The position numbers and the translations under genes were made by a program. Positions 2,149 through 61,151 of a DNA stretch of 64,000 bases are shown piece by piece. Numbering within the stretch: position 1 is the stretch's first letter; each line of letters opens with the position of its first letter. Below the pieces are notes generated by a model, which was given only the letters and a program-made list of their open reading frames with translations, was not told the DNA's origin and searched no databases. This DNA is from a virus. The DNA is taken from the IMG/VR virus record IMGVR_UViG_3300026487_000001; one strand, given 5' to 3'.

Positions 2149-2643
2149 GTGATTGACGTAAACTCGCGGCTTCATACTCTTTTGAAGGGCATCGCAGATA
2201 GCGGTAAGCTGTATGCTGGTGCTGCCGAAGGAATCATGAAGTCCATCTCTCAAGCGCGAGAGCCTATCCAACTTCCGCAGTCAGTCATCGAACTGCTGGG
2301 TCGTTCAAACGTGCCGGATATCACACCGTATGATCAGGCTGACCTGCTTCTGATTATGGACGCTCTTGCGAAAGCATTGTTGTCTATTCAGAGCATCCCT
2401 GATACCATGCCGGTTGATGACGGTAAGTACGGCACGTATCTGTCCGAGTATCGTGCGCAGTATCAGACACTGACCAACGAACAACTCACGTCTGTGTTTA
2501 CGCGCGACAAGTTCGAAGGGCTTAGTCCTCTTCGTGCTTACGCATTAGCCGTTGTGCTATCGGATATCGCCGCAGACCGTCGCTTGCCTGTACCGAGCGT
2601 GTGGCAGTCTATGATTGACAACTATACCAAACTGGGTGAATGA
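2149..2643 (+). CDS. Hypothetical protein
   Basis: In-frame GTG at 2149 preceded by AGGAGAAGAACC. The longer track ORF (2089) would overlap the upstream gene. Confidence 0.65.
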   Translation: MIDVNSRLHTLLKGIADSGKLYAGAAEGIMKSISQAREPIQLPQSVIELLGRSNVPDITPYDQADLLLIMDALAKALLSIQSIPDTMPVDDGKYGTYLSEYRAQYQTLTNEQLTSVFTRDKFEGLSPLRAYALAVVLSDIAADRRLPVPSVWQSMIDNYTKLGE

Positions 2644-5600
2644 TGAATCAGATGATTAGTACGTCAGCAACGGCTACCCAGCAAATTGCCGATACGTTTA
2701 ATCAGGCACTTGCTATCAAGCCCTTGCCGCCCGAATTCGACGCCAAGACGTCGAAGATGTACGCGACAGGGAAGTCCCGTCGTAACTATGAGGCGCTGGC
2801 TGTATTCACCGCTTCTACCGTAGCTCGCATCTACGCGGCCTTCGACCTGATCAACTACATCGTTACTAACGGTGCAGAGTTCGAAGATATGCTGGAAGTC
2901 TCTCCTGACGATTTCGTTAAGCGCATCAAGAACAACGTCGAAGCGTCCTCGCTGAAAATCAACATGATGTTGAACGGCGATAAGCTGAGTCGTGAGATCA
3001 AGACCGCTCTGGCCGAGCATCTGTCTGCATCTTCTGGCGCTATCATCGAAAACAGTACGCGCTTCCCTGGCGGCAAAGACATTATCATGTCTGGTACTCC
3101 GTGCCCCACCAGCCCGCTGGCTTCGAACGGTAACTTCAACGTTCTGAACAATCAGGGTAGCGACCGTCCTCGTGTTGATAACGACGCGAACTTCGAAAGC
3201 GCCAACCTGCGTACCTACAGCTCCGATATTGCGCAGTCTGCAATTCGTGTGGCGAAGACTATCTATAAGGATATCTTTGGCACTGAGCGCACTAACGCCA
3301 ACGCATTCGATACGAAGATGATTCGTATCCCGCTCGACAAAGACTGGTCTGTGTATAACGCTGCTCTGCGTTCTATTCACCCATCAATGAACGGCATTGA
3401 TATTGACCTGTTCCGCAACTTGGAAAAATCCGTAGTTGACGGCCTGGGCGATTTCATGACAATCGGCATCCGCTCTATCCCCGGCAAACAGATGATTGAT
3501 CGCAAGCTGCAAGCGATGAAGATCAGTCACGATACGCCTGTCGATTTCAACGAAGTAGCACTGGCAACCGACATTCGTGTCGAAGGTGGCCTGATTGTTA
3601 ACTTCGAAAAAGAGCTGGTGGAGTATATCTCTCAGGGTGCTGACACTCAGACCATGTGTCTGTATCGTTGGTTCCAGGGTTGGGCGAGCTACTACTTCCG
3701 TGTTGCTGGTTCTACTCGTACTGGTATCACCCGTGCTGCTCGTATTCCGCGTTATGTGACTTCTGCCACTTCTCTTCCTGAGTTGAAAAAGCTGCGTGAG
3801 AAATTCGGCTACGTGGTTAACGACGTGGTTGCTGATGAACACGGTATGACTATCATGCCTAACGGTACGATGGCTGTGCTGCCTCGTCGTGAAGACATTG
3901 ACATTGAGATGGTTAAGACCTACGAAACCACGCTCAACGGTGTCCTCGAAGACCTGTTCGAAAAAGGTGTGCCGCTATCTACTGAGCACGACACGCTGCG
4001 TACCAACATGTTCGCTATCCAGAACGGTAATCTGGACTTCGACCGTGATGTGCAGACGAAAGCCAAATCACTGTCTCGTTTCAGTGACGTGTGCATCGGT
4101 ATCGACCCTGACTTCTCTCTGATCGTGAACACCTCGAACGGCGGCGGGCTGGCAGTTAACGAAACTCGTACTGTCGGCATGAAGTCACCTAACTCTCTGG
4201 ACGTTGCTGATGCTCTCGGCTACGACTTTGCGGAGCCGGGTGAAGCGCCTAACTTCCGTTCTGCTGCGAACGTGATTGGTAACATTTATCACAATCAGGC
4301 ATCTGGTGGTATGGCTCTGTTCCGTCCGTCGTATGACACGCTGATTGAAGCTGCCAAAGTTGAGTCCGGTAGCGGTAAGTTGGTTGAGAGTGTGAGTGAG
4401 TCCACGATCAAATACAACTCCACAGAAGGTTCTAACCTGCCTGAGCTGCTGAACATCATCGCGCAGACCTGCCAGACCTACGAGTTCATGCTCAAGAACA
4501 AACAAGTTCCTGACCTGAAAACGCTGGTGGAGAATGCACGTAAAGCAATCGGCATGGACGCAGAAGATGCGGCTCTGTCTGAAAGCCCGATGGACAAAGA
4601 CCTCTATGAGAATCTGATCGCTAACGACTTCTCGGTACCAGACCTGTCTAACGAGCGCCCTGCTCTGACGATGCTGCGTATCATGATTCGTGTGCTGAAC
4701 GATGCTGCTGGTCTGCGTGGTTCTAACCTGATTGCAACTTCCATGAGCGAGATGGGAAGCATTCAGGCTGCCACCGAATCACTGCCGTCTCACACCCACT
4801 ACTTTGTGATGGGTGAGAAGTCCAAGCTGTCTGACATGGCACGCCTTAACAACTACTTCGGTGGTGCGGTGTACCGTGAAATGGCGCAGTCGCTTGTACG
4901 CGCCGATCGCAAGAAATTGTTTAGTTCTCTGATTGAAAGCGAACAAGCTCCAGGCTCAGGTCGTCTGCAACAGATCATCCTGCCATTCGCTACGATGTAC
5001 AGCGATGTGATTCCTAAGTCTCTTGAGATTTTCGAATCGGCCGAGACTGAGATCGAACGCCTGAAACCTGACAGCGGTATCACCATTGATGATATTCGCA
5101 TCCCAGGTCTGAAAGACGGTGCAGCATTACTGCCGCATCAGGTCGAAGCGCACAAAACTCTGCGTCGTCGTCCGCGCTTTGCAACAATCTTTATCGCGCC
5201 TGGCGGTGGTAAGACAATCATCGGTCTGACTGATATTGCAGCCACAATCAAAGAGCTGGATGACTTAGGTGAAGAAGGCATTCGCCCTCTGATCATCTGT
5301 CCTTCCAACCTCGTAGCGAACTGGTGTGACGACCTACACAAAATCGTTGACGGCTGGAACGCAGTGCCTATTACTGCTGATACCGTGAACACGTGGGGCG
5401 AAGAACGTATGTACGACGTGATCTCTCAGTCACCTCGTAACACTATCTTCATCGTCGGCCTGAGCTATTTGCAAACTGGTACGTTCAACGTTGACATTGG
5501 CGGTGTGCGTGTTCGTGTGCGTGGTGCTGTAGAGTTCGTTAACCGCTTCAAGTTCAGCTATGTGCTGCTCGACGAGTCGCATAAAGTGAAGAACTTCTCT

Positions 5601-9111: not shown

Positions 9112-10254
9112 ATGCACGAAATCACTCTCCCGTCCGGCACTGTTGTGTCGGTCTCTGCTGCGAACAAAACGCAGATCGCCAACGCTGAAATCCTTTTCGG
9201 TAAGAACGCAAAACTTATCGTTAAGAAGATTGACGAGCTGGTTAAAATCAAAGAGCTGGACACTGCGAAGCTGTCCGCTGTCCTTGACCTGCTGAACGAC
9301 GCAGAAGCAACTACCGCTCTTGCGAAGAAAGCTGCTGGCAAGAATCTTGTCACTGCGATGAAGAACCTGTATAAAGCCAAGACGCTGGTGGCTACCATTA
9401 ACGGTCTTCGTGCAATCAAGATCAAAGCAACTGACCCGAACAAAGTCGTCGCTAAGCCTCGTGCTGGGAAGCCGCAGGCTCCGGTAACTACCGTAGGCAC
9501 GTTCTCTCCTGCGTACTCCAGTCTGATCAGAAGCGATGCGCGTGACTATGCGCCTGACTTCATCCGCGCTGTTGAGCCTGTTGCGGGTGCTGGTAAGTTC
9601 TTATATGCTTCCGGCAAGCAGTTCTCTTTCCAGTATAAGAAACTGGAAGTGGCTGTTGTCATGCAGCAGAAAGGCTGGTTGATGACCTTCGTCGGTGACC
9701 ATCTTAAAAAGGTCAAGAAGGTTCAGATTCATCTGGGCGAACTGCGTTCAATCAAAAACGTCATCAAACTGCTGGCCACCAAAGATGCAACTGACGCTGA
9801 GATTGCTGCGGCCGCTAAGAAAGGCGAGCGCACTGCCGCTGAACTTCGAATGCCTAGCACCAGCAACGCATCGAGCGCTAACGGCTATGACTTCCTGTAT
9901 GCTGCGCTGATGAAGGGTGGTGATGGTGAGAACGTAAGAGCTATGTTCAAAGCCATGCAACTGCCTGCGCCGAAACGTAGCGTGACTGCTACCGTTGCTA
10001 ACATGGGTGGTGATGAAGATTGCATCCTTGTGATGGGTGCCGGTAGCAAGACGGGTGTTGTGTTCGGACCGACTGCGACAATGACTGGCTCTATCAAACA
10101 GGCTCGTGGTCGTGGTACGTTCACTGTTGCCAAGTATGATTCGTCCGCGGGCGCACCGAGCGATCTGCCTAAGTCTGCATTTGAGCAGCTGGGTACATTC
10201 TCTGATTATCAGAGCGCGTATCAGGTGTTTCGTGCGACCGTATCTACGCTGTAA
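9112..10254 (+). CDS. Hypothetical protein (abundant early/middle product?)
   Basis: 380-aa ORF, AAGGA RBS, followed by a strong terminator. No motif recognised. Confidence 0.75.
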   Translation: MHEITLPSGTVVSVSAANKTQIANAEILFGKNAKLIVKKIDELVKIKELDTAKLSAVLDLLNDAEATTALAKKAAGKNLVTAMKNLYKAKTLVATINGLRAIKIKATDPNKVVAKPRAGKPQAPVTTVGTFSPAYSSLIRSDARDYAPDFIRAVEPVAGAGKFLYASGKQFSFQYKKLEVAVVMQQKGWLMTFVGDHLKKVKKVQIHLGELRSIKNVIKLLATKDATDAEIAAAAKKGERTAAELRMPSTSNASSANGYDFLYAALMKGGDGENVRAMFKAMQLPAPKRSVTATVANMGGDEDCILVMGAGSKTGVVFGPTATMTGSIKQARGRGTFTVAKYDSSAGAPSDLPKSAFEQLGTFSDYQSAYQVFRATVSTL

Positions 10255-10349: not shown

Positions 10350-12218
10350 ATGGTGAAAATCAAGCACGTAGCTCTTGACTTCGATCCACCTGAACAGTTT
10401 GCTGACCAGCAGACGTATGACGGTGTTCGAATACTAAAACACATAAGTAAAAGTGCCAAAGGTGGTAAAGCACTTCTCGTCCTAGACCATATGCCTACCG
10501 AAGATTTGCGTAGCGGCAAAATATTCAGTAGTACGGAAGGTGAGTTGTTCCTGAATCAGATGCAGTATCTTGAAGATACGTTTCCGACCAAGACAACTCT
10601 TGACGACTGGAACTTCCTTGTTGTCTCGTACAACATGTTCAAGACGTATGACAAGGGCGAGCAGTTCAAAGAAGACGCAGACCAAGCGTTTGCGGATCGT
10701 ATTCGTGATTTGATTGTTGAGTACAAGCCAGACTATGTTCTGACTTTCGGCAAAGCGCCGTTCAAAGCACTGAACAGCGAGAAAATACAGTTCTCGAAAG
10801 ATCACTACGAGCACTGGTACGGTGTTGAGATTCCAACGAAGGTGAAGTACGACGGTAAGAAGCACAGCTTTATCCATGTGCCGAACGTCAGCTATCACAC
10901 CGTGTTGAACCCGATGCACATCAAAGGTTCATCGTATACGTTAGGCTACATGGCTCGCTGGATGTTGCCGTGGCTTAACAAGGGGATGCGCTATAAGATC
11001 GATGAAGTTACGTGTGGTAAGAAGCGTAACTGGGACCTCGTGTATGTAACGAAGGTCAAGCAACTTGAGAAAATCTTGAAGCGTATGAAGCGCGCCAAGA
11101 AGGTTGCAGTCGATACCGAAACAGAGAACCTGAATCGTATTAAGAATAAAATCTTGACGGTGCAGTTATCATCTGACGGTCAGAAGGCGTATGTTGTTCC
11201 TATCTATCACCGTGACAGTCCATTCAGTCCGAAAGAACTGCGTAGGGTAAGTGAGTTGTTCAAAGATTATTTCGAGGACAACGATAACAAGTATCAAATC
11301 TACACCAACGCGAAGTTCGACCTGAACGTAATGCGCTCTAACTTCGGCATTCGTAGTTATGCAGCAAACGTTTGGGATATTCAGGCGGGTGAGTTTGCGT
11401 TCGATGAAAACGCCAAGTCGTTGTTGAACGTTACCGGTAGCGGTTATTATAACTTGGCTAACCTGACGATGCAGTTTGGTTGTCAGGTGTACCACGAAGT
11501 GTCGTTCGGTAAAGAGATGCGAGCGACAATCGCAGACGTTGACCTCGACGAATCGGTGCAGGAGTATGCGGGTCTCGACGTTATCGTTCCGTTCCGTATT
11601 GCAGAGCAACAGCAAAAGCGAGCCAACGATATTAAATACAAGAAGTATGAGTCGATGGTCAGTGAGCAAATCTCCGACCAGATTCATGCGTTCTCGATTC
11701 TTGAAACGACAGGTGCAGGCGCAGACATTGATTACCTGTTTAAGCTCAACCTACCGAACAGCCCTATCAACGAAGAAATTCGAAACGTAGAGCGTGAGTT
11801 CATGAACAGCCCTGAGGTTAAGGCTGCGAACAAGGTTATTTGCAAAGACGACAATGTTCCTAAGATGGGTCTTATGGGCAAAGTCGAAGTGACCAAGTTC
11901 GATATGTCGAAGTCGGAACACAAACAGATTCTGTTCTTCGATGTGATGAAGCTCAAGCCTCTGAAAGAAGGGGAACAGTTACGTGAGAACGGCAAGAAGG
12001 CGGGTAAGCTCGACAAGGACTTCCAGGCAGCGTATGCTGATATACCGCTTGTGTCCCTCTACACCAAACTCGGTAAAGCGTACAAGCTCAAGAACGCCTA
12101 CGTTAACAGCCTGCTCAAGCTCTGGGGTGAATCAGAAGACTTCAAACATGACCGTTCAATCAGACCGACGTATGGTTATCTTGGAGTTGTAACGGGTCGT
12201 ACAAGCGCTAGTGATCCT
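10350..12218 (+). CDS. Family-A DNA polymerase, exon 1 (UDG-like N-terminal domain + 3'-5' exonuclease + first part of polymerase domain). 3' boundary model-dependent (12218 or 12234)
   Basis: Exo I VAVDTETENL (~11103-11132), YAGLDVIV, then ...VTGRTSASDP. The frame then runs into RLGFM-stop (TAG 12234-12236). Confidence 0.85.
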
Positions 12219-13438
12219 AGATTGGGCTTCATGTAGGAAACTGCATGTCGAAAGCTACCTAAACGGGGAAGAGCCTTACGCAGCGAATGTGTAAGGAGAA
12301 CCTACCGTGCTAAATGTCGGAAACGACTAAAAGCCTAACGACTATCCCGCGAGGGAGTAGAGTGACAAGCAAATGGTCACGCGAAATGGTAGCGTCCTAA
12401 GTTCTCGTTTGAGTCTGATATGCAAGCGCGTCAGACGAGAGAATAAGTCTATTCAGAATATTTTCAGAAATACCTCATTTGGGACTTGTTGACGATAATT
12501 AAAATGTATCATCGACAAAAGGTTCCATGAGGCAAATATGAAAAAAGTAAAAACGACCGTGAAGAAAGGCCGTGCTATTGCGCTCGTTGCAGAGCAGCAT
12601 CCTTTGCCGAAATATCTGAAACACTATATCGAAGCATGGGCGCCTAAATTCCTTCACGATCATCCAAACGTAAGCACTGCGTATTCACTAACCAACTTCA
12701 AATGTTGGAAGTCATACAGAGAGAACATCTTTGTCCATAAGACAGGTGTGTTCTTGATTGTTAGTGACGAAGGTGAAGTGCGTTTGACGATTGGGCGCAA
12801 ACATCCAAAAGGTTATTTATCTTTATGGATTCGCGGACCTCTTGCGCATCGTGTAGTTGCTACTGTTTGGAAGAAAAACAAACATCCTGAAACAAAGCCT
12901 ATGGTAAACCATCTTGATGGTATCAAAACAAACAACTGTGTTGATAACCTAGAGTGGTGCAGTAACTCACGCAATATTCTTCACGCCAGAGAGATGGGTT
13001 TGAACGTATATAATAAACCTACATCAGGCAAGAAGATTGGCGGACAGCGAAAAGGTGCATCGAAATACTTTGGTGTTCTCTTTGAGAAAGGTCGTCAGAA
13101 GTGGGTGGGCTTAGTGAGACACAACAAAATTGTTTATGGTCGTAGACGCTTTGACACAGAAGAAGCCGCAGCGATTCATTACAACAACGTGTGTGACCTG
13201 CTGGGTATTGATGATAAACCGAGAAATGATTTTCCGAAACAGAAGATTAAGAAAATCAAGAAAGGTAAAACTACAATACGCATGATTGGTTCAGGTGAGC
13301 ATTTGTTTTCTATTACTGAATAGCGGACTTGATATAGTCTCTTCCACATCGGTAAACGGTGTGGTGGTGTGTAAGACGAGGACTGTTGGTACTCGCATCA
13401 TCAGGGCGTGTGTTGCGAACACGTTTTAAGACCACAAA
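12219..13438 (+). mobile_element. Group I (IA2, T4 td-like) self-splicing intron with embedded homing endonuclease gene. Exact ends uncertain
   Basis: CTAAACGGGG 12258-12267. CCGTGCTAAATGTCGGAAACGACTAAAA 12305-12332. GNRA-capped hairpins at 12316-12327 and 12345-12356. GATATAGTC 13331-13339. P7 candidate GACTA 12325-12329 / TAGTC 13335-13339. Splits a conserved PolA motif. Confidence 0.75.
12538..13323 (+). CDS. HNH (I-HmuI-like) + AP2-domain homing endonuclease, intron-encoded
   Basis: [28 protein letters not shown] (HNH_3-type). [44 protein letters not shown] (AP2-type). GAGG RBS. AT-richer codons than neighbours. Confidence 0.85.
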
Positions 13439-14740
13439 AATCTCCAACAGGTACCGTCTCGTAGTGAGATGGGTAAGTTGATCAAACGTATTCTGATTGC
13501 GCGTAAGAATCGCCTGCTTATCAAGGTCGACTACTCGGCGCACGAAGTTCGTGGTTGGTCAATCATCTCAGGTGACCAGGGCGTTGCAGACGTATTTGAG
13601 CAAGGCCGTAAGCTGCGTCATCGTTTCCGTACAGTACCGGACCCATGGATTGAGCACCGCGTCGAAGCTGAGGGTGACGTTCACAAAATCAACGCCGCTT
13701 ACTTCTTCGGTATTCCAAACGTAATGGACGTAACCAAGTCCGTACGTAACGCGGTTAAGACCGTAATCTTCGGCCTGATCTATCAGCAGGGTGATAAAGG
13801 TCTTGCGAAGTCAACAGGGCGTGAAGTGTCTGAGATTGCAGAAATCAAAGGCAAGTTCTTAACACGATTCCCGGTAGGCTTAAAATGGTTCGATAAGATT
13901 AAGAAGTTTGCACATGAGAACTTCTTTGTTGAGTCGCCGGTTGGTCGTCGTCGCCATCTATGGGGCCTGATGTTACCTGAGTCGCATCGTGAAGCCAATA
14001 TGGTTCATGCAGCGTGTGACCGCCGTGCGGTAAACAGTCCAGTTCAGGGCTTCGGTTCTGACCTGATGATGTCCGCGATTCGTATTCTGGACCGTATGAA
14101 GTATGAGTATTGGAAAGCGAACGGCGAGTACCCTGACTTTGACATGAACGTATCTGTACACGACTCCTTGACCGTTGACTGCGATTACAAATGGATCTTC
14201 CTTGCGCTCGATATGATCGAACGTGCGATGACCAGCGCAGTGGTCGAAGTTGTGCAGAAGCGTCACGAAGGGTTTGAGTTCACGTCCGTACCTGAGATTG
14301 ACTTTGAAATCGGTGCGTCAGAGAAAGACGTGCAGGGTTGGAACTTCTCTTACGTTCAACTCAGGAAGCTCATTAAAGACGGACTTGAGATTAAGCGTGA
14401 CGAGCTGGGTGAGAAAGACCTCGATGTTGAGAAGACACTGGACAGCATTATGGAAGACCAGTATCATCTCATGTCCGATTGGATGAAGAAACAGCTTTGG
14501 GCTAACGATATTAAAATTCGTAGCATGGACAAAGTTAATCCTCTCACCAACAAGGACAAGAAGAACATCAAGGAGTGGCTGGCAGAACTTCCGAAGAACA
14601 TTAAAACGTTCGAGAAGTACAAAGCGGAAGAAGCTGCGAAGAAAGCCGCTGCATCTACAGAGGGAGCCGCGCCTAAGAAGAAAATCAAACTCAGTAAGTC
14701 TATGCTCAAATCTGCTCTTAAGGGGATTGCGAAAAAATGA
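13439..14740 (+). CDS. Family-A DNA polymerase, exon 2 (motifs A, B, C). 5' boundary model-dependent (13439 or 13431)
   Basis: NLQQVP + 30 aa + DYSAHEVR (motif A), RNAVKTVIFGLIYQQG (motif B), VHDSL (motif C). Conserved sequence starts upstream of the first ATG (13469). Confidence 0.85.
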   Translation, partial: NLQQVPSRSEMGKLIKRILIARKNRLLIKVDYSAHEVRGWSIISGDQGVADVFEQGRKLRHRFRTVPDPWIEHRVEAEGDVHKINAAYFFGIPNVMDVTKSVRNAVKTVIFGLIYQQGDKGLAKSTGREVSEIAEIKGKFLTRFPVGLKWFDKIKKFAHENFFVESPVGRRRHLWGLMLPESHREANMVHAACDRRAVNSPVQGFGSDLMMSAIRILDRMKYEYWKANGEYPDFDMNVSVHDSLTVDCDYKWIFLALDMIERAMTSAVVEVVQKRHEGFEFTSVPEIDFEIGASEKDVQGWNFSYVQLRKLIKDGLEIKRDELGEKDLDVEKTLDSIMEDQYHLMSDWMKKQLWANDIKIRSMDKVNPLTNKDKKNIKEWLAELPKNIKTFEKYKAEEAAKKAAASTEGAAPKKKIKLSKSMLKSALKGIAKK

Positions 14741-46720: not shown

Positions 46721-47844
46721 TGTCACAAGGTTTAGCAATAGCTGACTATTCGTACTATCGCTATCTCGGTCAGGCGGCAATGATCTCAAACGGAGTCCAC
46801 ATGGAACCGCGCGAGGTCATTGGCCTTCTCAAAGTGAACAGCGACCTGTACTACATAGCCCATCCTAAATACGATCAGGCATATGCAATCAGTGGAGAAG
46901 ACGGTGACAAGCTCATTCAGAACAGTCGCCCATTCACTGCAAAACCTGATGCGCTCTTTAAGCCTGGCTTTGACTTCACTCCTTATGAGGAGAAGCAGAA
47001 GAAGCCTGCGCCACCAGCACCAAAACCCAAACCAGTTTCTATTAAGAAAAAGCCTGCACCAGAACCTGAGCCGGAAGCACCTGTTGAGGACTCTGCTGAG
47101 GAAGACACACCTGATTCATTAAAGGCTATTCAGCGCCGTGTTGGCGATATGCCTGATTTTGGTAATTTCAAACCACTGCAATATGCCTCAGCAATTTATC
47201 CGGGTGGTACGCCAAACAACTACGCCACCAAGCCTGTTAAGAAGTGCGGTAAAGTGCATCTTGAAATAATGGGTATGGATGACCTGCGTGTGCCTGGCGT
47301 TACGCTTGAGAAGAACGGCGTTAGTCCTCCTGATTATGTTCTTAAAGACATTCAGGAAAACGTCATGCCTGGCATTGGTCTGAACATAGCACTGCCATTC
47401 AAACGTCTGTATGTTGGCCTGTTAAAAGCTAACTCGGATAGTGGTGGTAGCCATATCGCAACGTATCGCGTACACGGCTTCCTGTATGGCGCTATTTCAA
47501 TCCATCCTGCGCAGTTGGTGCATCTACTTGGTGGCTATAATAGTCTGAGTATGGCTCACGTTATTACTCACGAACTGGCCCATTTTGTGGACCATACGAT
47601 GATTCGTAACGTTGACCGCATGAAGTTCGATCAGGCTATCAAGGGCAAGAAAATCCATCCAGATTCGCTTAACGCGCGAACCATTAGTTCGGTACCCGCC
47701 GAGCACTTCGCAACGCTTGCGGAGCTGATGGTTTGGGGATATAGTCTGCGCAACGTATATACCTTAAATGGTGTTGAAATTGTCTCGAAATACTTCGAAA
47801 ACAGATATATTCCTCAAACTGACATTGATAGCAGAAAAATTTAA
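46720..47844 (+). CDS. HExxH zinc-metallopeptidase-like protein with recurrent N-terminal domain and Pro/Lys linker
   Basis: ATG overlapping the upstream TGA. VITHELAHFVDH (HELAH at 47569-47583). KKPAPPAPKPKPVSIKKKPAPEPEPE linker. Confidence 0.6.
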   Translation: MSQGLAIADYSYYRYLGQAAMISNGVHMEPREVIGLLKVNSDLYYIAHPKYDQAYAISGEDGDKLIQNSRPFTAKPDALFKPGFDFTPYEEKQKKPAPPAPKPKPVSIKKKPAPEPEPEAPVEDSAEEDTPDSLKAIQRRVGDMPDFGNFKPLQYASAIYPGGTPNNYATKPVKKCGKVHLEIMGMDDLRVPGVTLEKNGVSPPDYVLKDIQENVMPGIGLNIALPFKRLYVGLLKANSDSGGSHIATYRVHGFLYGAISIHPAQLVHLLGGYNSLSMAHVITHELAHFVDHTMIRNVDRMKFDQAIKGKKIHPDSLNARTISSVPAEHFATLAELMVWGYSLRNVYTLNGVEIVSKYFENRYIPQTDIDSRKI

Positions 47845-58461: not shown

Positions 58462-61151
58462 TGGCTAAGCCACAAGAAAAAGAGTTGTCCGCACTCGAAC
58501 TAATGATCGAACATGCGGACAGCGTTAGTCCTTCTGTAGCGGGTATGCCTAAAGCTCGTCGCAAACGTAAGGCTGCGAATGATTATCCTACGCAGGCTGA
58601 TTACGAACGCGATTACGACCCAGAGATGTACGAAGAAGAAGTTGTCTACGTCGGTCCTGGATCAAGAGCGAAGAACCGTGCAGCGAAAGCTATGCGCGAG
58701 AAGATGGCCAATCAGCGTGTGCGCTATGTCAATGATAGCGAAGCGATACCAACATCTCCTCGTCCTGTAGCACAACAACCTAATTCCCGCGAAGTAGAGT
58801 CAGCACTCGAAGACCTGTTCATTGCAGGCGAGAAGTCTGGTGACGATATTGTTAAGGCAATCAAAGAAGGCAATGCAGTCTCTACCAAGACGCAGAAAGC
58901 TCTCGAAGATTGGCTTGAGTGGGAAAAGCGCGAGGCATTCAAAGAGAAGAATCGCGCTAAGTCAGATCCACATGGACAACAGCCTGGTGCTGGTGGTCCT
59001 AACACGGGTGCTAATGATGACGACAACGGCCCGGATAATGATAGCGGTAGTGATCTCGGTGATTCTGGTAACGATAATCGTCGTCGCCGTACCGGTCGTC
59101 GTAATCGCCGTGGCAGACGTTACGGTAGAGGCGCCGGTAATCGTAGAGGACCCGGACGCAATCTCCCACGTTCTCGCTTCCCGCGACTGAGAGGCAAAGC
59201 TGGTGCGTTAATGGCACTGGTTGGTATTGGTGCTGCAACTGCTGGTGGCTTGTGGTTGAAAGAAAGATCACAAGAGAAGTTTGAGCAGGACAACGCAGAG
59301 AACTCTGGTGCAGGTATGCCAGAAGCTCCGGCCCAGCCTCAGCCTGTAGCACAGCCCCAAGAAGTTCAACGTGCCGAAGAAGCTGCTAAGGGTGATACGC
59401 CTCAGCCTCCTTCACAAGCACAAGATGCTGCTGTAGCTGGCGCTTCAATGTTGCTGGCTGGTGCGTCTAAGAAGATTCCTGTCATCGGTCCTGCTTTAGG
59501 TAACAGTATCGGCCTTGCGAATGATATGCAGCACATCGACGCAGACGAAACTCTTACTGACGCTGAGAAGGCGCACGAGAAGAAGAAAGCGACTGGCGGA
59601 GCTATTGGCGGTACTGCTGGTGGTACAACAGGCGCTATTGCTGGTGCGTGGATTGGCGGTACGCTGGGTTCAGTTGTTCCTGTCGTTGGTACCGCTGCCG
59701 GTGCTGCTCTTGGCAGTCTGTTGGGGGGCATCTTGGGTGACTACTTCGGTAACTCTGTCGGCGAATACGTTGCTGACAAGATAACTGATGAAACCGACAC
59801 GATGCTTGCTGACGGCGAGAAAGACCGTAAAGAGAAGATGGAGGATTACAACAAGACCACTGACGAGAACGAGAACAAGTCCAAGTTCCCGCAGCCCACT
59901 GTCTCACCTTTCAGCTTTATGGGTATGATGGGAATGGGTGCTGGTGTCGGAGGCGGTGGTGGTCAGTATCAAGGACCGATGCGAGCGCAGCCTGCCAAGC
60001 GATATGACAGCAAACAGGTAACTGATATTGCCAACAAAGCGATTGCTGAGGGCGGTCTTGGTTCTGTTAGTGAGCAGTTCGAGTCTGGTGGTCGAGGCGT
60101 CAGCACTGTATCTACTGGTAAAGGTGACTACGGCGGTGTGTCGTATGGTAAGCACCAGCTAGCCACAAACAACGGCAGTATGATGAACTTCCTGAACAGC
60201 CCTGAAGGTAAACCGTTCTTAGAACGCTTCGGTGGCCTTGCTCCGGGAACGTCTCAGTTCAACTCCGTATATAAAGATGTGGCAAACACTCAGGGTGAGG
60301 CTTTTGATAAAGCGCAGTCTGACTATATCACGCGTACTCACTATGCGCCGCTTGCTGCGAAGATGCAGAACGAAGTAGGTGTTGACCTGACGAAGCGTGG
60401 TGCAGGTGTTAAAGAGCTGATGTATAGCACGGCCGTTCAGTACGGAGCAGGCACCAGCGTTATCTCGAATGCGCTGCAAGGCAAAGACGTTAACAGCATG
60501 TCCGACGATGAACTGATTAAGACCATCCAGGATTATAAAGCTGCAACGACTGACAAATACTTCAAGTCCTCTGATGCTCAGACAAGGCAGTCCGTTGCCA
60601 CGCGAGCGCAGAACGAGAAGGACGTATTGCTCAAGGTAGCTGAGGCAGATCGTCAGAAGAAAGCTGTAAATACTCCTAAGCCGGCTGAAACGGAAGCGGA
60701 GCAGGATGCACGTATTGCTGCTCGATTCCCAGACCTGCCTAAGGGTGAACCTCAGACGTATTCTGAAACTGATCCCAATTCGCTGCCTGACTTCACAGGT
60801 AGAGGACCTGTAGCACCTAAGTCCTCACCAGAAGAGCATGAGCGTCGCTTGAATGACCTTGTTGCCGCGGCTGCACCTGATGTTAAACGCATTGAGCCTA
60901 CAGTCAAGCCGGAAGAAACTGTTGCGAGACAGCCACTCGTTACTGAGGGTGATATTGCTCGTACAGAAGCACCTGCTCCGCCACCACCAGCTCAAGCACC
61001 TGCGCCTGAGATGCCGAAAGGTGGCGCTGTGTCTCGTCCAAGCTCTAGCGGTTCAAGCAACGCAAGTCCTAGTAACTCACATTCGCTCGACTCAATTCCA
61101 GTGTTTATGGATGATCCGATGATGAACATGATTACTATGGGCTACATGTGA
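58461..61151 (+). CDS. Tape-measure-like protein with Gly-zipper membrane segments and lysozyme-like domain
   Basis: 896 aa. RRRRTGRRNRRGRRYGRG. GGAIGGTAGGTTGAIAGAWIGGTLG. ESGGRGVSTVSTGKGDYGGVSYGKHQLATNNGSM resembles muralytic domains. Pro-rich C-terminus. Confidence 0.6.
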   Translation: MAKPQEKELSALELMIEHADSVSPSVAGMPKARRKRKAANDYPTQADYERDYDPEMYEEEVVYVGPGSRAKNRAAKAMREKMANQRVRYVNDSEAIPTSPRPVAQQPNSREVESALEDLFIAGEKSGDDIVKAIKEGNAVSTKTQKALEDWLEWEKREAFKEKNRAKSDPHGQQPGAGGPNTGANDDDNGPDNDSGSDLGDSGNDNRRRRTGRRNRRGRRYGRGAGNRRGPGRNLPRSRFPRLRGKAGALMALVGIGAATAGGLWLKERSQEKFEQDNAENSGAGMPEAPAQPQPVAQPQEVQRAEEAAKGDTPQPPSQAQDAAVAGASMLLAGASKKIPVIGPALGNSIGLANDMQHIDADETLTDAEKAHEKKKATGGAIGGTAGGTTGAIAGAWIGGTLGSVVPVVGTAAGAALGSLLGGILGDYFGNSVGEYVADKITDETDTMLADGEKDRKEKMEDYNKTTDENENKSKFPQPTVSPFSFMGMMGMGAGVGGGGGQYQGPMRAQPAKRYDSKQVTDIANKAIAEGGLGSVSEQFESGGRGVSTVSTGKGDYGGVSYGKHQLATNNGSMMNFLNSPEGKPFLERFGGLAPGTSQFNSVYKDVANTQGEAFDKAQSDYITRTHYAPLAAKMQNEVGVDLTKRGAGVKELMYSTAVQYGAGTSVISNALQGKDVNSMSDDELIKTIQDYKAATTDKYFKSSDAQTRQSVATRAQNEKDVLLKVAEADRQKKAVNTPKPAETEAEQDARIAARFPDLPKGEPQTYSETDPNSLPDFTGRGPVAPKSSPEEHERRLNDLVAAAAPDVKRIEPTVKPEETVARQPLVTEGDIARTEAPAPPPPAQAPAPEMPKGGAVSRPSSSGSSNASPSNSHSLDSIPVFMDDPMMNMITMGYM

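Follow-up and report, generated by a model that had tools for sequence, protein, structure and literature searches.

The polymerase gene in the DNA analyzed here (a 64,000-nt stretch, hereafter the window; IMG/VR record IMGVR_UViG_3300026487_000001) raises the question of how one protein could be made from two separated reading frames. The host of the interruption is an Erwinia jumbo phage, whose family-A DNA polymerase (PolA) gene is split by a 1220-nt insert with boundaries at 12218/12219 and 13438/13439 (all features are on the plus strand). We consider it probable that 12219-13438 is a mobile, self-splicing group I intron of subgroup IA2 and T4 td type that ends in A. Both the kind of intron and its insertion site are already known. 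What is unusual is the A at its end; to our knowledge, the terminal nucleotide is G in nearly all known group I introns.

The interrupted gene and its probable splice junction

The PolA frame opens at 10350. Exon 1 (10350..12218) encodes the N-terminal domain, the 3'-5' exonuclease domain (Pfam DNA_pol_A_exo1, E 1e-16), and the first part of the polymerase domain, up to ...VTGRTSASDP, while exon 2 (13439..14740) begins with NLQQVPSRSEMGK and matches DNA_pol_A with an E value of 1.8e-40. The DNA_pol_A profile ends at position 128 in exon 1 and resumes at position 127 in exon 2, and thus the two halves abut exactly. Both exons are colinear with the gene of the sister phage phB78 (98.7% identical), which reads without interruption through ...TSASDP/NLQQVPSRSE, and an insertion between DP and NLQ was absent from the intron-less homologues compared. 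Taking out 12219-13438 leaves a 3171-nt open reading frame (ORF) with 7 amino acid differences from phB78, none of them near the junction. As an earlier, sequence-only reading had described, the upstream frame stops at 12236 (TAG 12234-12236, five codons, RLGFM, past the end of exon 1), the continuation NLQQVPSRSEMGKLIKRILIARKNRLLIKVDYSAHEVR lies in frame from 13439, and the first ATG of the downstream part is at 13469. The in-frame TAA that it placed directly against 13439 is instead at 13427-13429, three codons (GAC CAC AAA) upstream.

The same reading regarded the splice sites as ambiguous between two models. Comparison with relatives resolves them in favor of the first, in which the 5' site follows U12218 and the 3' exon starts at A13439, giving the SDP/NLQQVP junction of phB78. 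The pairings proposed for it exist. In P1 (12213..12229), exon nucleotides GAUCCU (12213-18) pair with the internal guide GGGCUU (12224-29), including CCU with GGG and the U12218.G12224 wobble; in P10, AGAUU in the loop (12219-23) pairs with AAUCU at the start of exon 2 (13439-43). P1 (GAUCCU or AAUCCU with GGGCUU), the U.G pair at the splice site, and the 5-bp P10 are kept in 14/14 introns; P1 is paired in 100% of alignment cells, with its outer pair changing from G.U to A-U, and P10 in 97%. The position of the 5' splice site is also homologous to that in relatives with unambiguous junctions, namely Pseudomonas phage CRC2, L008, and L017-L028.

The second model, with the 5' site after U12234 and the 3' site after G13430, was refuted. 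Its P1 is the conserved P2 hairpin (12230..12247, CAUGUAG-GAAA-CUGCAUG), which contains the UAG stop of the exon 1 frame, appears in the minimum-free-energy (MFE) fold, has 4/7 pairs changed on both sides across homologues, and is intronic in relatives with unambiguous junctions, where it occurs in the compensatory variants CGUAUAGGAAACUAUACG, CUUGUGAGAAAUCGCAAG, and CACAUGGGAAACUAUGUG. The distance from G13430 to the exon is 8 nt in three copies and 9 nt in two (L015 and L022), and this variable distance argues that the stretch is intronic and that G13430 cannot be the 3' splice site.

The ribozyme fold

Homology and covariation bear out the reading's claim that PolA is split at ...DP/NLQ... 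by a td-like group I intron that carries an HNH-AP2 endonuclease gene in one of its peripheral loops. Across 14 homologous copies, helices P1 to P9.2 were paired in 97.3% of cells, compared with 34 to 50% when the partners were slid, 41/88 pairs had changes on both sides, and none of 500 shuffles matched the observed values. A 7-sequence alignment that included td, CRC2, and U1G gave 89% pairing, with 40/88 pairs altered on both sides, and the MFE fold of a window construct without the ORF reproduced most helices. The covariance-model search that had been proposed as a check returned no Rfam hit in the window, which formally speaks against a group I fold, but Intron_gpI matched L008, a natural ORF-less copy, over its full length (30.6 bits, E 7e-6); the miss in the window stems from the limits of the model in the face of the ~0.9-kb insertion in P8.

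The 5' core (12254..12393) is delimited by covariation, by the MFE fold, and by BLAST, in which 12327-12370 matched the td introns of T4-like phages. It consists of P3 (12254-59 with 12388-93), P4 (12263-68 with 12303-08), P5 (12274-81 with 12289-96), P6 (12309-10 with 12333-34), P6a (12316-19 with 12324-27, GAAA loop), the P7 5' strand (GACUAU, 12340-45), P7.1 (12346-48 with 12353-55, GCGA loop), and P7.2 (12362-66 with 12376-80). The presence of P7.1 and P7.2 between P7 and P3' is an IA2 hallmark (PMC3428280). The core resumes at 13325..13339, where the P8 3' strand (GGAC, 13325-28), which pairs with GUCC (12394-97) and shows compensatory change in 3/4 pairs among the 14 copies, directly follows the UAG stop of the endonuclease gene. 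The P7 3' strand, GAUAUAGUC (13331-39), does not differ from that of the T4-type td intron and includes the helix that binds guanosine; P7 is invariant in 14/14 copies and in 3 more distant homologues. In the 3' peripheral domain (13344..13426), helices are 96 to 100% paired, with compensatory change in 7/8 pairs of P9 (13344-51 with 13357-64), 6/9 of P9.1 (13366-69 with 13399-402 and 13375-80 with 13392-96), and 3/8 of P9.2 (13404-11 with 13419-26), which has a conserved NUUGCGA loop. A single-stranded tail, UAAGACCACAAA (13427..13438), places A13438 at the omega position. A P9.0 pairing proposed to help dock the terminal A was unsupported (54% paired in the 14 copies).

The terminal A and competing outcomes

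As the reading had recognized, its first model implies a non-G terminal nucleotide. A13438 precedes the 3' exon, and no G occurs closer upstream than G13430. In twelve relatives with an intron at this site of the polymerase gene, the omega nucleotide is a G directly before AAUCU or AACCU. In the 14 aligned rows the omega column holds A in 4 and G in 10, and L022, outside the alignment, also has A. The window's clade thus has A in five genomes or assemblies, whose tails come in three variants (...CACAAA, ...CACAAAA, and ...CCGAAAA), and we therefore conclude that it is not an error. Within this A-ending clade, the endonuclease gene is under purifying selection (pS 0.58, dS about 1.1, dN/dS 0.10), and the ribozyme shows 0/185 differences in the 5' core and 3-4/115 in the 3' core, the latter in loops or from G.U to A-U. 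An unchanged 5' core next to a dS of about 1.1 suggests that the A-ending intron is maintained and functional, although recent gene conversion, as opposed to selection over the long term, could account for part of the perfect 5' core identity among clade members.

In the splicing pathway that we propose from these sequence features, the P1-P9.2 ribozyme would form in the polymerase pre-mRNA, and exogenous guanosine would attack after U12218, at the wobble with G12224. The 5-bp P10 would then align the freed 5' exon with the 3' exon, and attack on the bond after A13438 would yield GAUCCU/AAUCUC and a seamless polymerase carrying the junction peptide TSASDPNLQQVPSR. In Tetrahymena mutagenesis, replacing the omega G with A greatly impairs exon ligation in a ribozyme with a wild-type G-binding site. 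P7 in the window is the same as in G-ending relatives, and thus a compensating change for the omega A is not visible; the second step would be expected to be slower and to lean on P10 for positioning.

By analogy with that mutagenesis, the omega A would be expected to block exon ligation, and the best-surviving alternative, which we regard as unlikely, is that splicing is no longer completed and that the polymerase is made as two polypeptides: residues 1 to 628 (...SDPRLGFM) and a C-terminal piece from the ATG at 13469. Gene 43 of some T4-like phages, which is split, would be a parallel; the UAG at 12234-36 closes the exon 1 frame just inside the intron, and the 423-aa ORF beginning at the ATG is annotated by gene callers as a separate gene. 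However, that piece would lack NLQQVPSRSE, part of a highly conserved family-A motif, and there is no start codon between the TAA at 13427 and 13469. The 10 codons before the ATG keep their amino acids in 5/5 A-ending copies across many nucleotide differences, AGT-to-TCT serine changes among them, although this synonymous-only variation may predate the intron invasion. P1 and P10 are also intact, and the ribozyme core has changed far less than the synonymous sites of the embedded gene, which is hard to explain if splicing is dispensable.

Less probable still is that G13430 (UUUUAAG followed by ACCACAAA...) is the terminal nucleotide, with the extra 8 nt handled by a -1 slip on ACA AAA A (TTK insertion), by a 5' site at U12222, or by one at U12234 (8-aa insertion). 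The tail contains no other G, the two nucleotides before G13430 are AA, as they are before the genuine omega G in several relatives, and the five-A run lets tRNA-Lys re-pair in the -1 frame. The 9-nt distance in L015 and L022 would be in frame (TTK or TEK), but with 8 nt in the other three genomes, among them the named isolate pEa_SNUABM_40, no single rule puts all five copies in frame. AGAUU and ACCAC lack P10 complementarity, neither U12222 nor U12228 has a guide sequence as pairing partner, U12234 depends on the covarying P2 hairpin, any of the insertions would be one that no intron-less homologue compared contains, and an unstimulated frameshift on A AAA A would be an inefficient way to express the only family-A polymerase gene of the genome. 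It is very improbable that the insert is a degenerate intron remnant or a free-standing endonuclease cassette in a pseudogenized polymerase, with another enzyme replicating the genome: jumbo phages may have several replication proteins, but both exons are intact ORFs close to the uninterrupted phB78 gene, all but four of 3217 matching phage records (every listed Alexandravirus genome included) have a single PolA place, the helices are intact and covarying, and the endonuclease gene is under purifying selection.

Probable mobility and comparison with known introns

The P8 loop holds a gene for a 261-aa HNH homing endonuclease (12538..13323; PHROG 59, E 1e-24) with an I-HmuI-like nuclease as its N-terminal part and an AP2-like DNA-binding domain as its C-terminal part. 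Its family profile matched I-HmuI (PDB 1U3E, E 1.8e-17) and AP2/ERF (7ET4, E 0.025), and Pfam HNH_3 was found in 18/18 family members and AP2 in 8/18. The P8 extension (12394..12537) forms a structured 5' untranslated region (12404-12545, -41.7 kcal/mol, z -5.0), in which the GAGG ribosome-binding site (12526-29) is occluded within a predicted hairpin (12473-12532).

Evidence of horizontal spread of the intron comes from near-identical copies in diverged exons: between the window and pEa_SNUABM_40 the intron is ~100% identical and the exons only 84 to 88%. The end of exon 1 (12201..12218), which is also the exon strand of P1, reads ACA AGC GCT AGT GAT CCT, compared with ACC TCA GCG TCT GAC CCG in the intron-less allele, and 13 of the 55 mismatches to phB78, all synonymous, fall within -16 to +8 of the junction. 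This flank looks like a co-conversion or endonuclease-resistance tract. The endonuclease would presumably nick or cut intron-less polymerase alleles and so spread the intron by gene conversion, which would carry 15 to 25 nt of recoded exon along.

At the same PolA site, L008, a 319-kb IMG/VR contig, CRC2, and L017-L028 share P1, P10, and a homologous, covarying core, but unlike the window they all end in G. The endonuclease ORF is absent from L008; an HNH ORF lies in P6 in the 319-kb contig and CRC2, and in P8 in L017-L028. This distribution suggests that the ORF invaded the ribozyme independently more than once. These close G-ending sisters offer a natural matched comparison for the A-ending intron.

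The T4 td intron (IA2, I-TevI) shares with the window the P3, J3/4, and P4 strings CUAAACGGGGAA and is identical to it in J6/7 and P7 (CCUAACGACUAUC) and in the P7 3' strand. Both introns contain P7.1 and P7.2, cap P9 with a GNRA loop, and place a tail of ~11 nt after a P9.2 hairpin. The td intron differs in its thymidylate synthase host gene, in carrying a GIY-YIG endonuclease in P6 rather than an HNH enzyme in P8, and in its canonical G end (...AUAAUG). We take the proline before NLQ to be residue 674, counting from E. coli D705, which places the insertion at the same hotspot as the "site 674" introns of phage PolA genes. Those introns encode HNH nicking endonucleases and occur in SPO1 (I-HmuI), SP82 (I-HmuII), Bastille (I-BasI), and Pf-WMP3 (I-PfoP3I); further introns of this group sit at 676 in phiL7 and at 881 in PhiI and W31 (PMC3428280, PMC11878797). 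Like the intron described here, they are IA2, lie in the PolA finger subdomain, and accompany an I-HmuI-like enzyme, and PHROG 59 is the family most often seen in the polymerase introns of Bastillevirinae (PMC11878797). In contrast, the intron family described here occurs in Gram-negative jumbo phages (Alexandravirus and uncultured relatives) and in N4-like phages, the endonuclease carries an AP2-like domain at its C terminus, and the window's clade ends in A.

A natural A-ending group I intron is known in hexacoral mitochondria (ND5-717; PMC6545197), and one of two Coxiella burnetii 23S rRNA introns, in the words of a title (Raghavan 2007, cited in PMC3428280), "lacks the canonical Omega G." The two differ from our intron in subgroup and host (an organelle mRNA and a bacterial rRNA), and resemble it in combining a conventional core with a non-G end in an essential gene, kept across a clade.

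Polymerase gene interrupted by an insert

The source is a jumbo phage of Erwinia, genus Alexandravirus. Its family-A polymerase (PolA) ORF starts at 10350 and runs into a TAG stop (12234-36) five codons past the conserved ...VTGRTSASDP. The conserved continuation, NLQQVPSRSEMGK..., is in frame again from 13439, with the first ATG only at 13469, and a 261-codon ORF (12538-13323) lies between the two halves. Exon 1 matched positions 33-128 of the Pfam DNA_pol_A profile and exon 2 matched 127-360, so that the halves abut. Deletion of 12219-13438 left a contiguous DNA_pol_A domain and a 3171-nt ORF. The sequence-only reading had proposed alignment with an intron-less polymerase as a check, and the spliced ORF proved colinear with PolA of phB78, the nearest intron-less relative (98.7% identity), which reads ...TSASDPNLQQVPSRSE....

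Between the spliced ORF and that of phB78 there are 55 nucleotide and 7 amino acid differences. A cluster of 13 of these nucleotide changes, every one synonymous, occupies the stretch from −16 to +8 around the junction: phB78 has ACC TCA GCG TCT GAC CCG/AAC TTG CAG, whereas the window has ACA AGC GCT AGT GAT CCT/AAT CTC CAA (slashes mark splice junctions throughout). The exon flank in the window is thus recoded relative to the phB78-type intron-less target, ACCTCAGCGTCTGACCCGAACTTGCAGCAG. A 25-nt tract of this sort would be expected if gene conversion had introduced the intron along with flanking exon sequence of foreign origin. The intron is also nearly identical between phages whose exons are 84 to 88% identical. 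Both features are indirect pointers to homing into the intron-less allele. A further group of mismatches to phB78, about 30 in number, lies in exon 2 at about 13790-14045 (+350 to +605 from the junction) and holds six of the seven amino acid differences, the remaining gene being 99% identical; it looks like a separate recombination patch. Polymerase residues 1 to ~230 (10350-11040), upstream of the 3'-5' exonuclease domain, had no credible Pfam match, only a weak one to DUF5301 (E = 0.008).

Among related genomes, the polymerase was uninterrupted in 48 and carried the same insert in one, pEa_SNUABM_40. In the deposited record of that phage (MZ443780.1, 471-4864) neither polymerase nor intron is annotated, and exon 1, endonuclease and exon 2 stand as three separate "hypothetical proteins", an example of how annotation pipelines call such a gene as unrelated pieces.

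Group I fold and the encoded endonuclease

BLAST searches with the 5' part of the intron recovered the td introns (T4 thymidylate synthase, subgroup IA2) of T4-like phages and, from the N4-like Pseudomonas phages CRC2 and CL, a homologous intron that occupies the same PolA site, while the 3' domain, searched against phage genomes, matched pEa_SNUABM_40 only. Further copies were reached with degenerate DNA patterns and intron-ORF homologues in IMG/VR, JGI, ENA and Logan assemblies; among these, L008 is a naturally occurring copy of the intron that has no ORF.

An Rfam search of the window returned no group I match, either at the gathering score or at E ≤ 10, which we ascribe to the approximately 0.9 kb in the P8 loop. 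The covariance-model check suggested by the sequence-only reading was therefore turned to L008, with which Rfam Intron_gpI aligned end to end (30.6 bits, E = 7e-6, under the gathering score of 50). Helices were assigned with td as the guide, and pairing was scored in two alignments. In the alignment of 14 PolA-site copies, 97.3% of 1,232 cells were paired over 88 pairs, and 41 of these pairs had changed on both sides; none of 500 shuffles reached the observed values, and slid partners were 34 to 50% paired. In a seven-sequence alignment that included td, CRC2 and Escherichia phage U1G, 89% of cells were paired and 40 of 88 pairs had changed on both sides. Here again 0/500 shuffles reached the values, except for further pair types (11/500), and slid partners gave 34 to 48%.

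Helices P1 to P9, comprising the P3-P8 and P4-P6 domains and the P7 pseudoknot, are supported by covariation. P7 (GACUAUC with GAUAUAGUC) is identical to that of td, and the IA2 hallmark, P7.1 and P7.2 between P7 and P3', was found. Both of these helices were 100% paired in the 14 copies, with compensatory changes in one of three pairs of P7.1 (12346-55) and four of five pairs of P7.2 (12362-80). The minimum free energy fold of the ORF-deleted window sequence gave P2 to P6a, P7.1, P7.2, P8, P9 and P9.2. The intron ORF occupies the P8 loop and ends in a UAG stop immediately next to the P8 3' strand. Homology and covariation together bear out the earlier proposal of a polymerase gene split by a td-like group I intron.

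Two further pairings were considered and set aside. A clade-specific helix of ACCAC (13431-35) with GUGGU (13364-68), which would present the intron tail, was dropped because GGUG (13366-69) is the homologous P9.1 basal stem, which pairs with CAUC and covaries. A P9.0 pairing of UU (13342-43) with AA (13436-37) was unsupported, with 54% of cells paired. The string GATATAGTC occurs exactly three times in the window against 0.26 expected. The two matches elsewhere, at 47738-47746 (+) and 60321-60329 (−), were rejected as introns: they lie in ordinary coding sequence without other intron elements around them and are probably due to chance.

The endonuclease ORF belongs to PHROG 59 (E = 1e-24). 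A profile of its 18-member family matched the I-HmuI structure 1U3E (E = 1.8e-17, positions 48-164), and the HNH motif residues H104, N124, H125, N137, N146 and H149 are invariant in the family alignment. Pfam HNH_3 was matched by all 18 members; as a single sequence, the window protein scored 18.5 bits against a cutoff of 24.8. The HNH assignment is solid. Pfam AP2 was matched by 8 of the 18 (best E = 1e-6) and gave no match to the window protein itself; the family profile matched the AP2/ERF domain of TEM1 (7ET4) with E = 0.025 over 157-218. By homology, the window copy likely carries an AP2 tail. The GAGG ribosome-binding site (12526-29) and the AUG region are sequestered in a long stable hairpin (12461-12544), the fold of 12404-12545 having −41.7 kcal/mol and a z score of −5.0, an arrangement that recalls how translation of the T4 intron endonucleases is controlled. 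A similarly built hairpin, different in sequence, is kept in relatives.

Since the endonuclease gene is absent from L008, lies in P6 in CRC2 and a 319-kb IMG/VR contig, and lies in P8 in the window and most other copies, endonuclease genes appear to have invaded one ribozyme separately. On the 319-kb contig, a second P7'-like string, ACGTGATATAGTCTTAAC, lies upstream of the P6 HNH ORF (about 9830-9870) and opens the inserted segment; it may be the footprint of an endonuclease cassette acquired from another intron. In N4-like coliphages, other genes are interrupted by related td-like introns that have an HNH-AP2-type ORF in P6, namely in U1G (about 2990-3890), where the CDSs on either side are listed as separate hypothetical proteins, and in Gamaleyavirus NAN33P5 (about 2300-3140). 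Both introns end in G.

Splice sites and the terminal nucleotide

The sequence-only reading had left two junctions open. One placed the 5' splice site after U12218 and the 3' exon at A13439, with an intron ending in A; the other placed the sites after U12234 and G13430, at the cost of an eight-residue insertion. The context of the first 5' site, (G/A)AUCCU/AGAUUGGGCUU, recurs in every homologous copy, with P1 fully paired and the U12218.G12224 wobble at the splice site present as U.G in 14 of 14 copies. P10, formed by AGAUU with the first five exon 2 nucleotides, is 97% paired across the 14 copies. P1 and P10 specify the polymerase-restoring junction at the homologous 5' site, and the first model is the right one. 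The second model is wrong: its "P1" (12230-47) turned out to be P2, which covaries and is intronic in every relative with an unambiguous junction.

We then considered whether another junction could restore a terminal G. If the 5' exon were to end at 12217 or 12219, the mRNA would be identical or equivalent, yet the terminal A would stay and the U at the site would be lost. A 3' site at G13450, which would delete NLQQ in frame, is disfavored because NLQQ is conserved and the equivalent G lies at a different distance in the Logan run L015. G13430 is the one G close by; three copies have it 8 nt from the exon and two have it 9 nt away. The segment therefore cannot be translated in every copy and must be intronic, which makes the junction CCU/ACCACAAA unlikely. 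No combination of a U-ending 5' exon and a G-ending intron was in frame consistently across the clade. Splicing would accordingly be predicted to join GAUCCU/AAUCUCCA with A13438 as the terminal nucleotide, and the product would be a full-length polymerase of about 120 kDa with the tryptic junction peptide TSASDPNLQQVPSR.

The omega G, the substrate of the single nucleoside-binding site of the ribozyme in the second step, is treated as universal, and its replacement by A in model ribozymes severely slows exon ligation. In the window intron this G is absent, and A13438 directly precedes the 3' exon. Twelve relatives have G directly before AAUCU or AACCU at the intron end (for example ...GAAUAAAG/, ...ACAAAAG/, ...AGUUUG/ and ...AACAGG/). 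An A was found at omega in the window, pEa_SNUABM_40, a 268-kb IMG/VR contig, the Logan runs L015 and L016, and the homologous copy L022, and in all five members counted for the window's clade, whose tails come in three variants (GACCACAAA/, GACCACAAAA/ and GACCGAAAA/). A search for a compensating change in the G-binding helix found none, P7 and J6/7 being identical between A-ending and G-ending copies. The terminal A departs from a near-universal group I feature but leaves the intron within the class, since exceptions have been described in nature: in hexacoral mitochondria the ND5-717 intron has an A at its end (PMC6545197), and a title cited in PMC3428280 describes a Coxiella 23S intron that "lacks the canonical Omega G."

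A more distant copy, L019 (Logan SRR25399828, about 1060-1090), has the end ...GAGCGAGA/AAUCUACAG, in which G and then A precede the Asn codon, on a contig that stops short of the 5' half. Provided that its 5' exon has the terminal CCU of all the others, it would be a second, independently derived A-ending intron.

Functionality and comparison with known introns

Between the window and either the 268-kb contig or L015, the endonuclease gene has diverged to pS 0.58 (dS about 1.1, dN/dS 0.10), and the ribozyme shows 0/185 differences in the 5' core and 3 to 4 differences over 115 positions of the 3' core, which lie in loops or are G.U-to-A-U changes. By the yardstick of its own endonuclease gene, the A-ending clade is an old one. 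The first ten codons of exon 2, up to the first ATG, keep NLQQVPSRS in all five copies, despite many nucleotide changes. A single PolA place was found in all but four of 3,217 matching phage records, including every listed Alexandravirus genome, and pEa_SNUABM_40, a named phage with a complete deposited genome, carries the A-ending intron. Core constraint, kept exon codons and the single PolA place all point toward a functional A-ending intron. Homogenization by gene conversion could also produce the identity of the ribozyme cores, and part of the exon variation before the first ATG may predate the invasion. Function is further qualified by the unchanged P7 and by the slowed ligation that an omega A causes in model ribozymes. 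Our confidence is high for the boundaries and for the assignment to group I, and moderate for splicing at the terminal A, as deduced from comparative sequence; the account as a whole we regard as probable.

More speculatively, and in our view improbably, the terminal A might be a selected feature of the clade rather than a tolerated defect, tuning the polymerase at the second splicing step. It would then slow or gate exon ligation, possibly with the assistance of a phage or host factor, and abolish the G-dependent side reactions (3'-splice-site hydrolysis and full-length circle formation), so that polymerase output or timing in the jumbo-phage infection cycle would be set at that step. On this reading, L019 as a possible second, independent A-ending copy would fit an intron family unusually permissive at omega by virtue of a strong 5-bp P10.

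To our knowledge, within a non-exhaustive search, this is the first A-ending group I intron in a phage or in subgroup IA2. It represents a td-type clade in the apparent sole family-A polymerase gene of its phage, and the G-ending close relatives, with the same site, P1, P10 and P7, provide a ready-made matched pair. That pair bears on how a wild-type G-binding site can process a terminal A, on how far P10 can stand in for omega recognition and on whether a slow second step has any regulatory value. Software that predicts splice sites on the assumption of a terminal G would put the junction in the wrong place.

Counting from D705, we take E. coli residue 674 to be the Pro before NLQ, which makes it the same insertion site as that of the window intron. 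"Site 674" (E. coli numbering) is common to the introns of Pf-WMP3, SPO1, SP82 and Bastille (PMC3428280). Among the endonucleases of Bastillevirinae polymerase introns, PHROG 59 is the most frequent family (PMC11878797), and IA2 introns with HNH nicking endonucleases are described in PolA of SPO1, SP82, Bastille, Pf-WMP3, phiL7, PhiI and W31 (PMC3428280, PMC11878797). HNH-carrying group I introns in phage polymerase genes are thus well known, and the element as a whole is an ordinary one of this kind, its 3' end being the unusual part.
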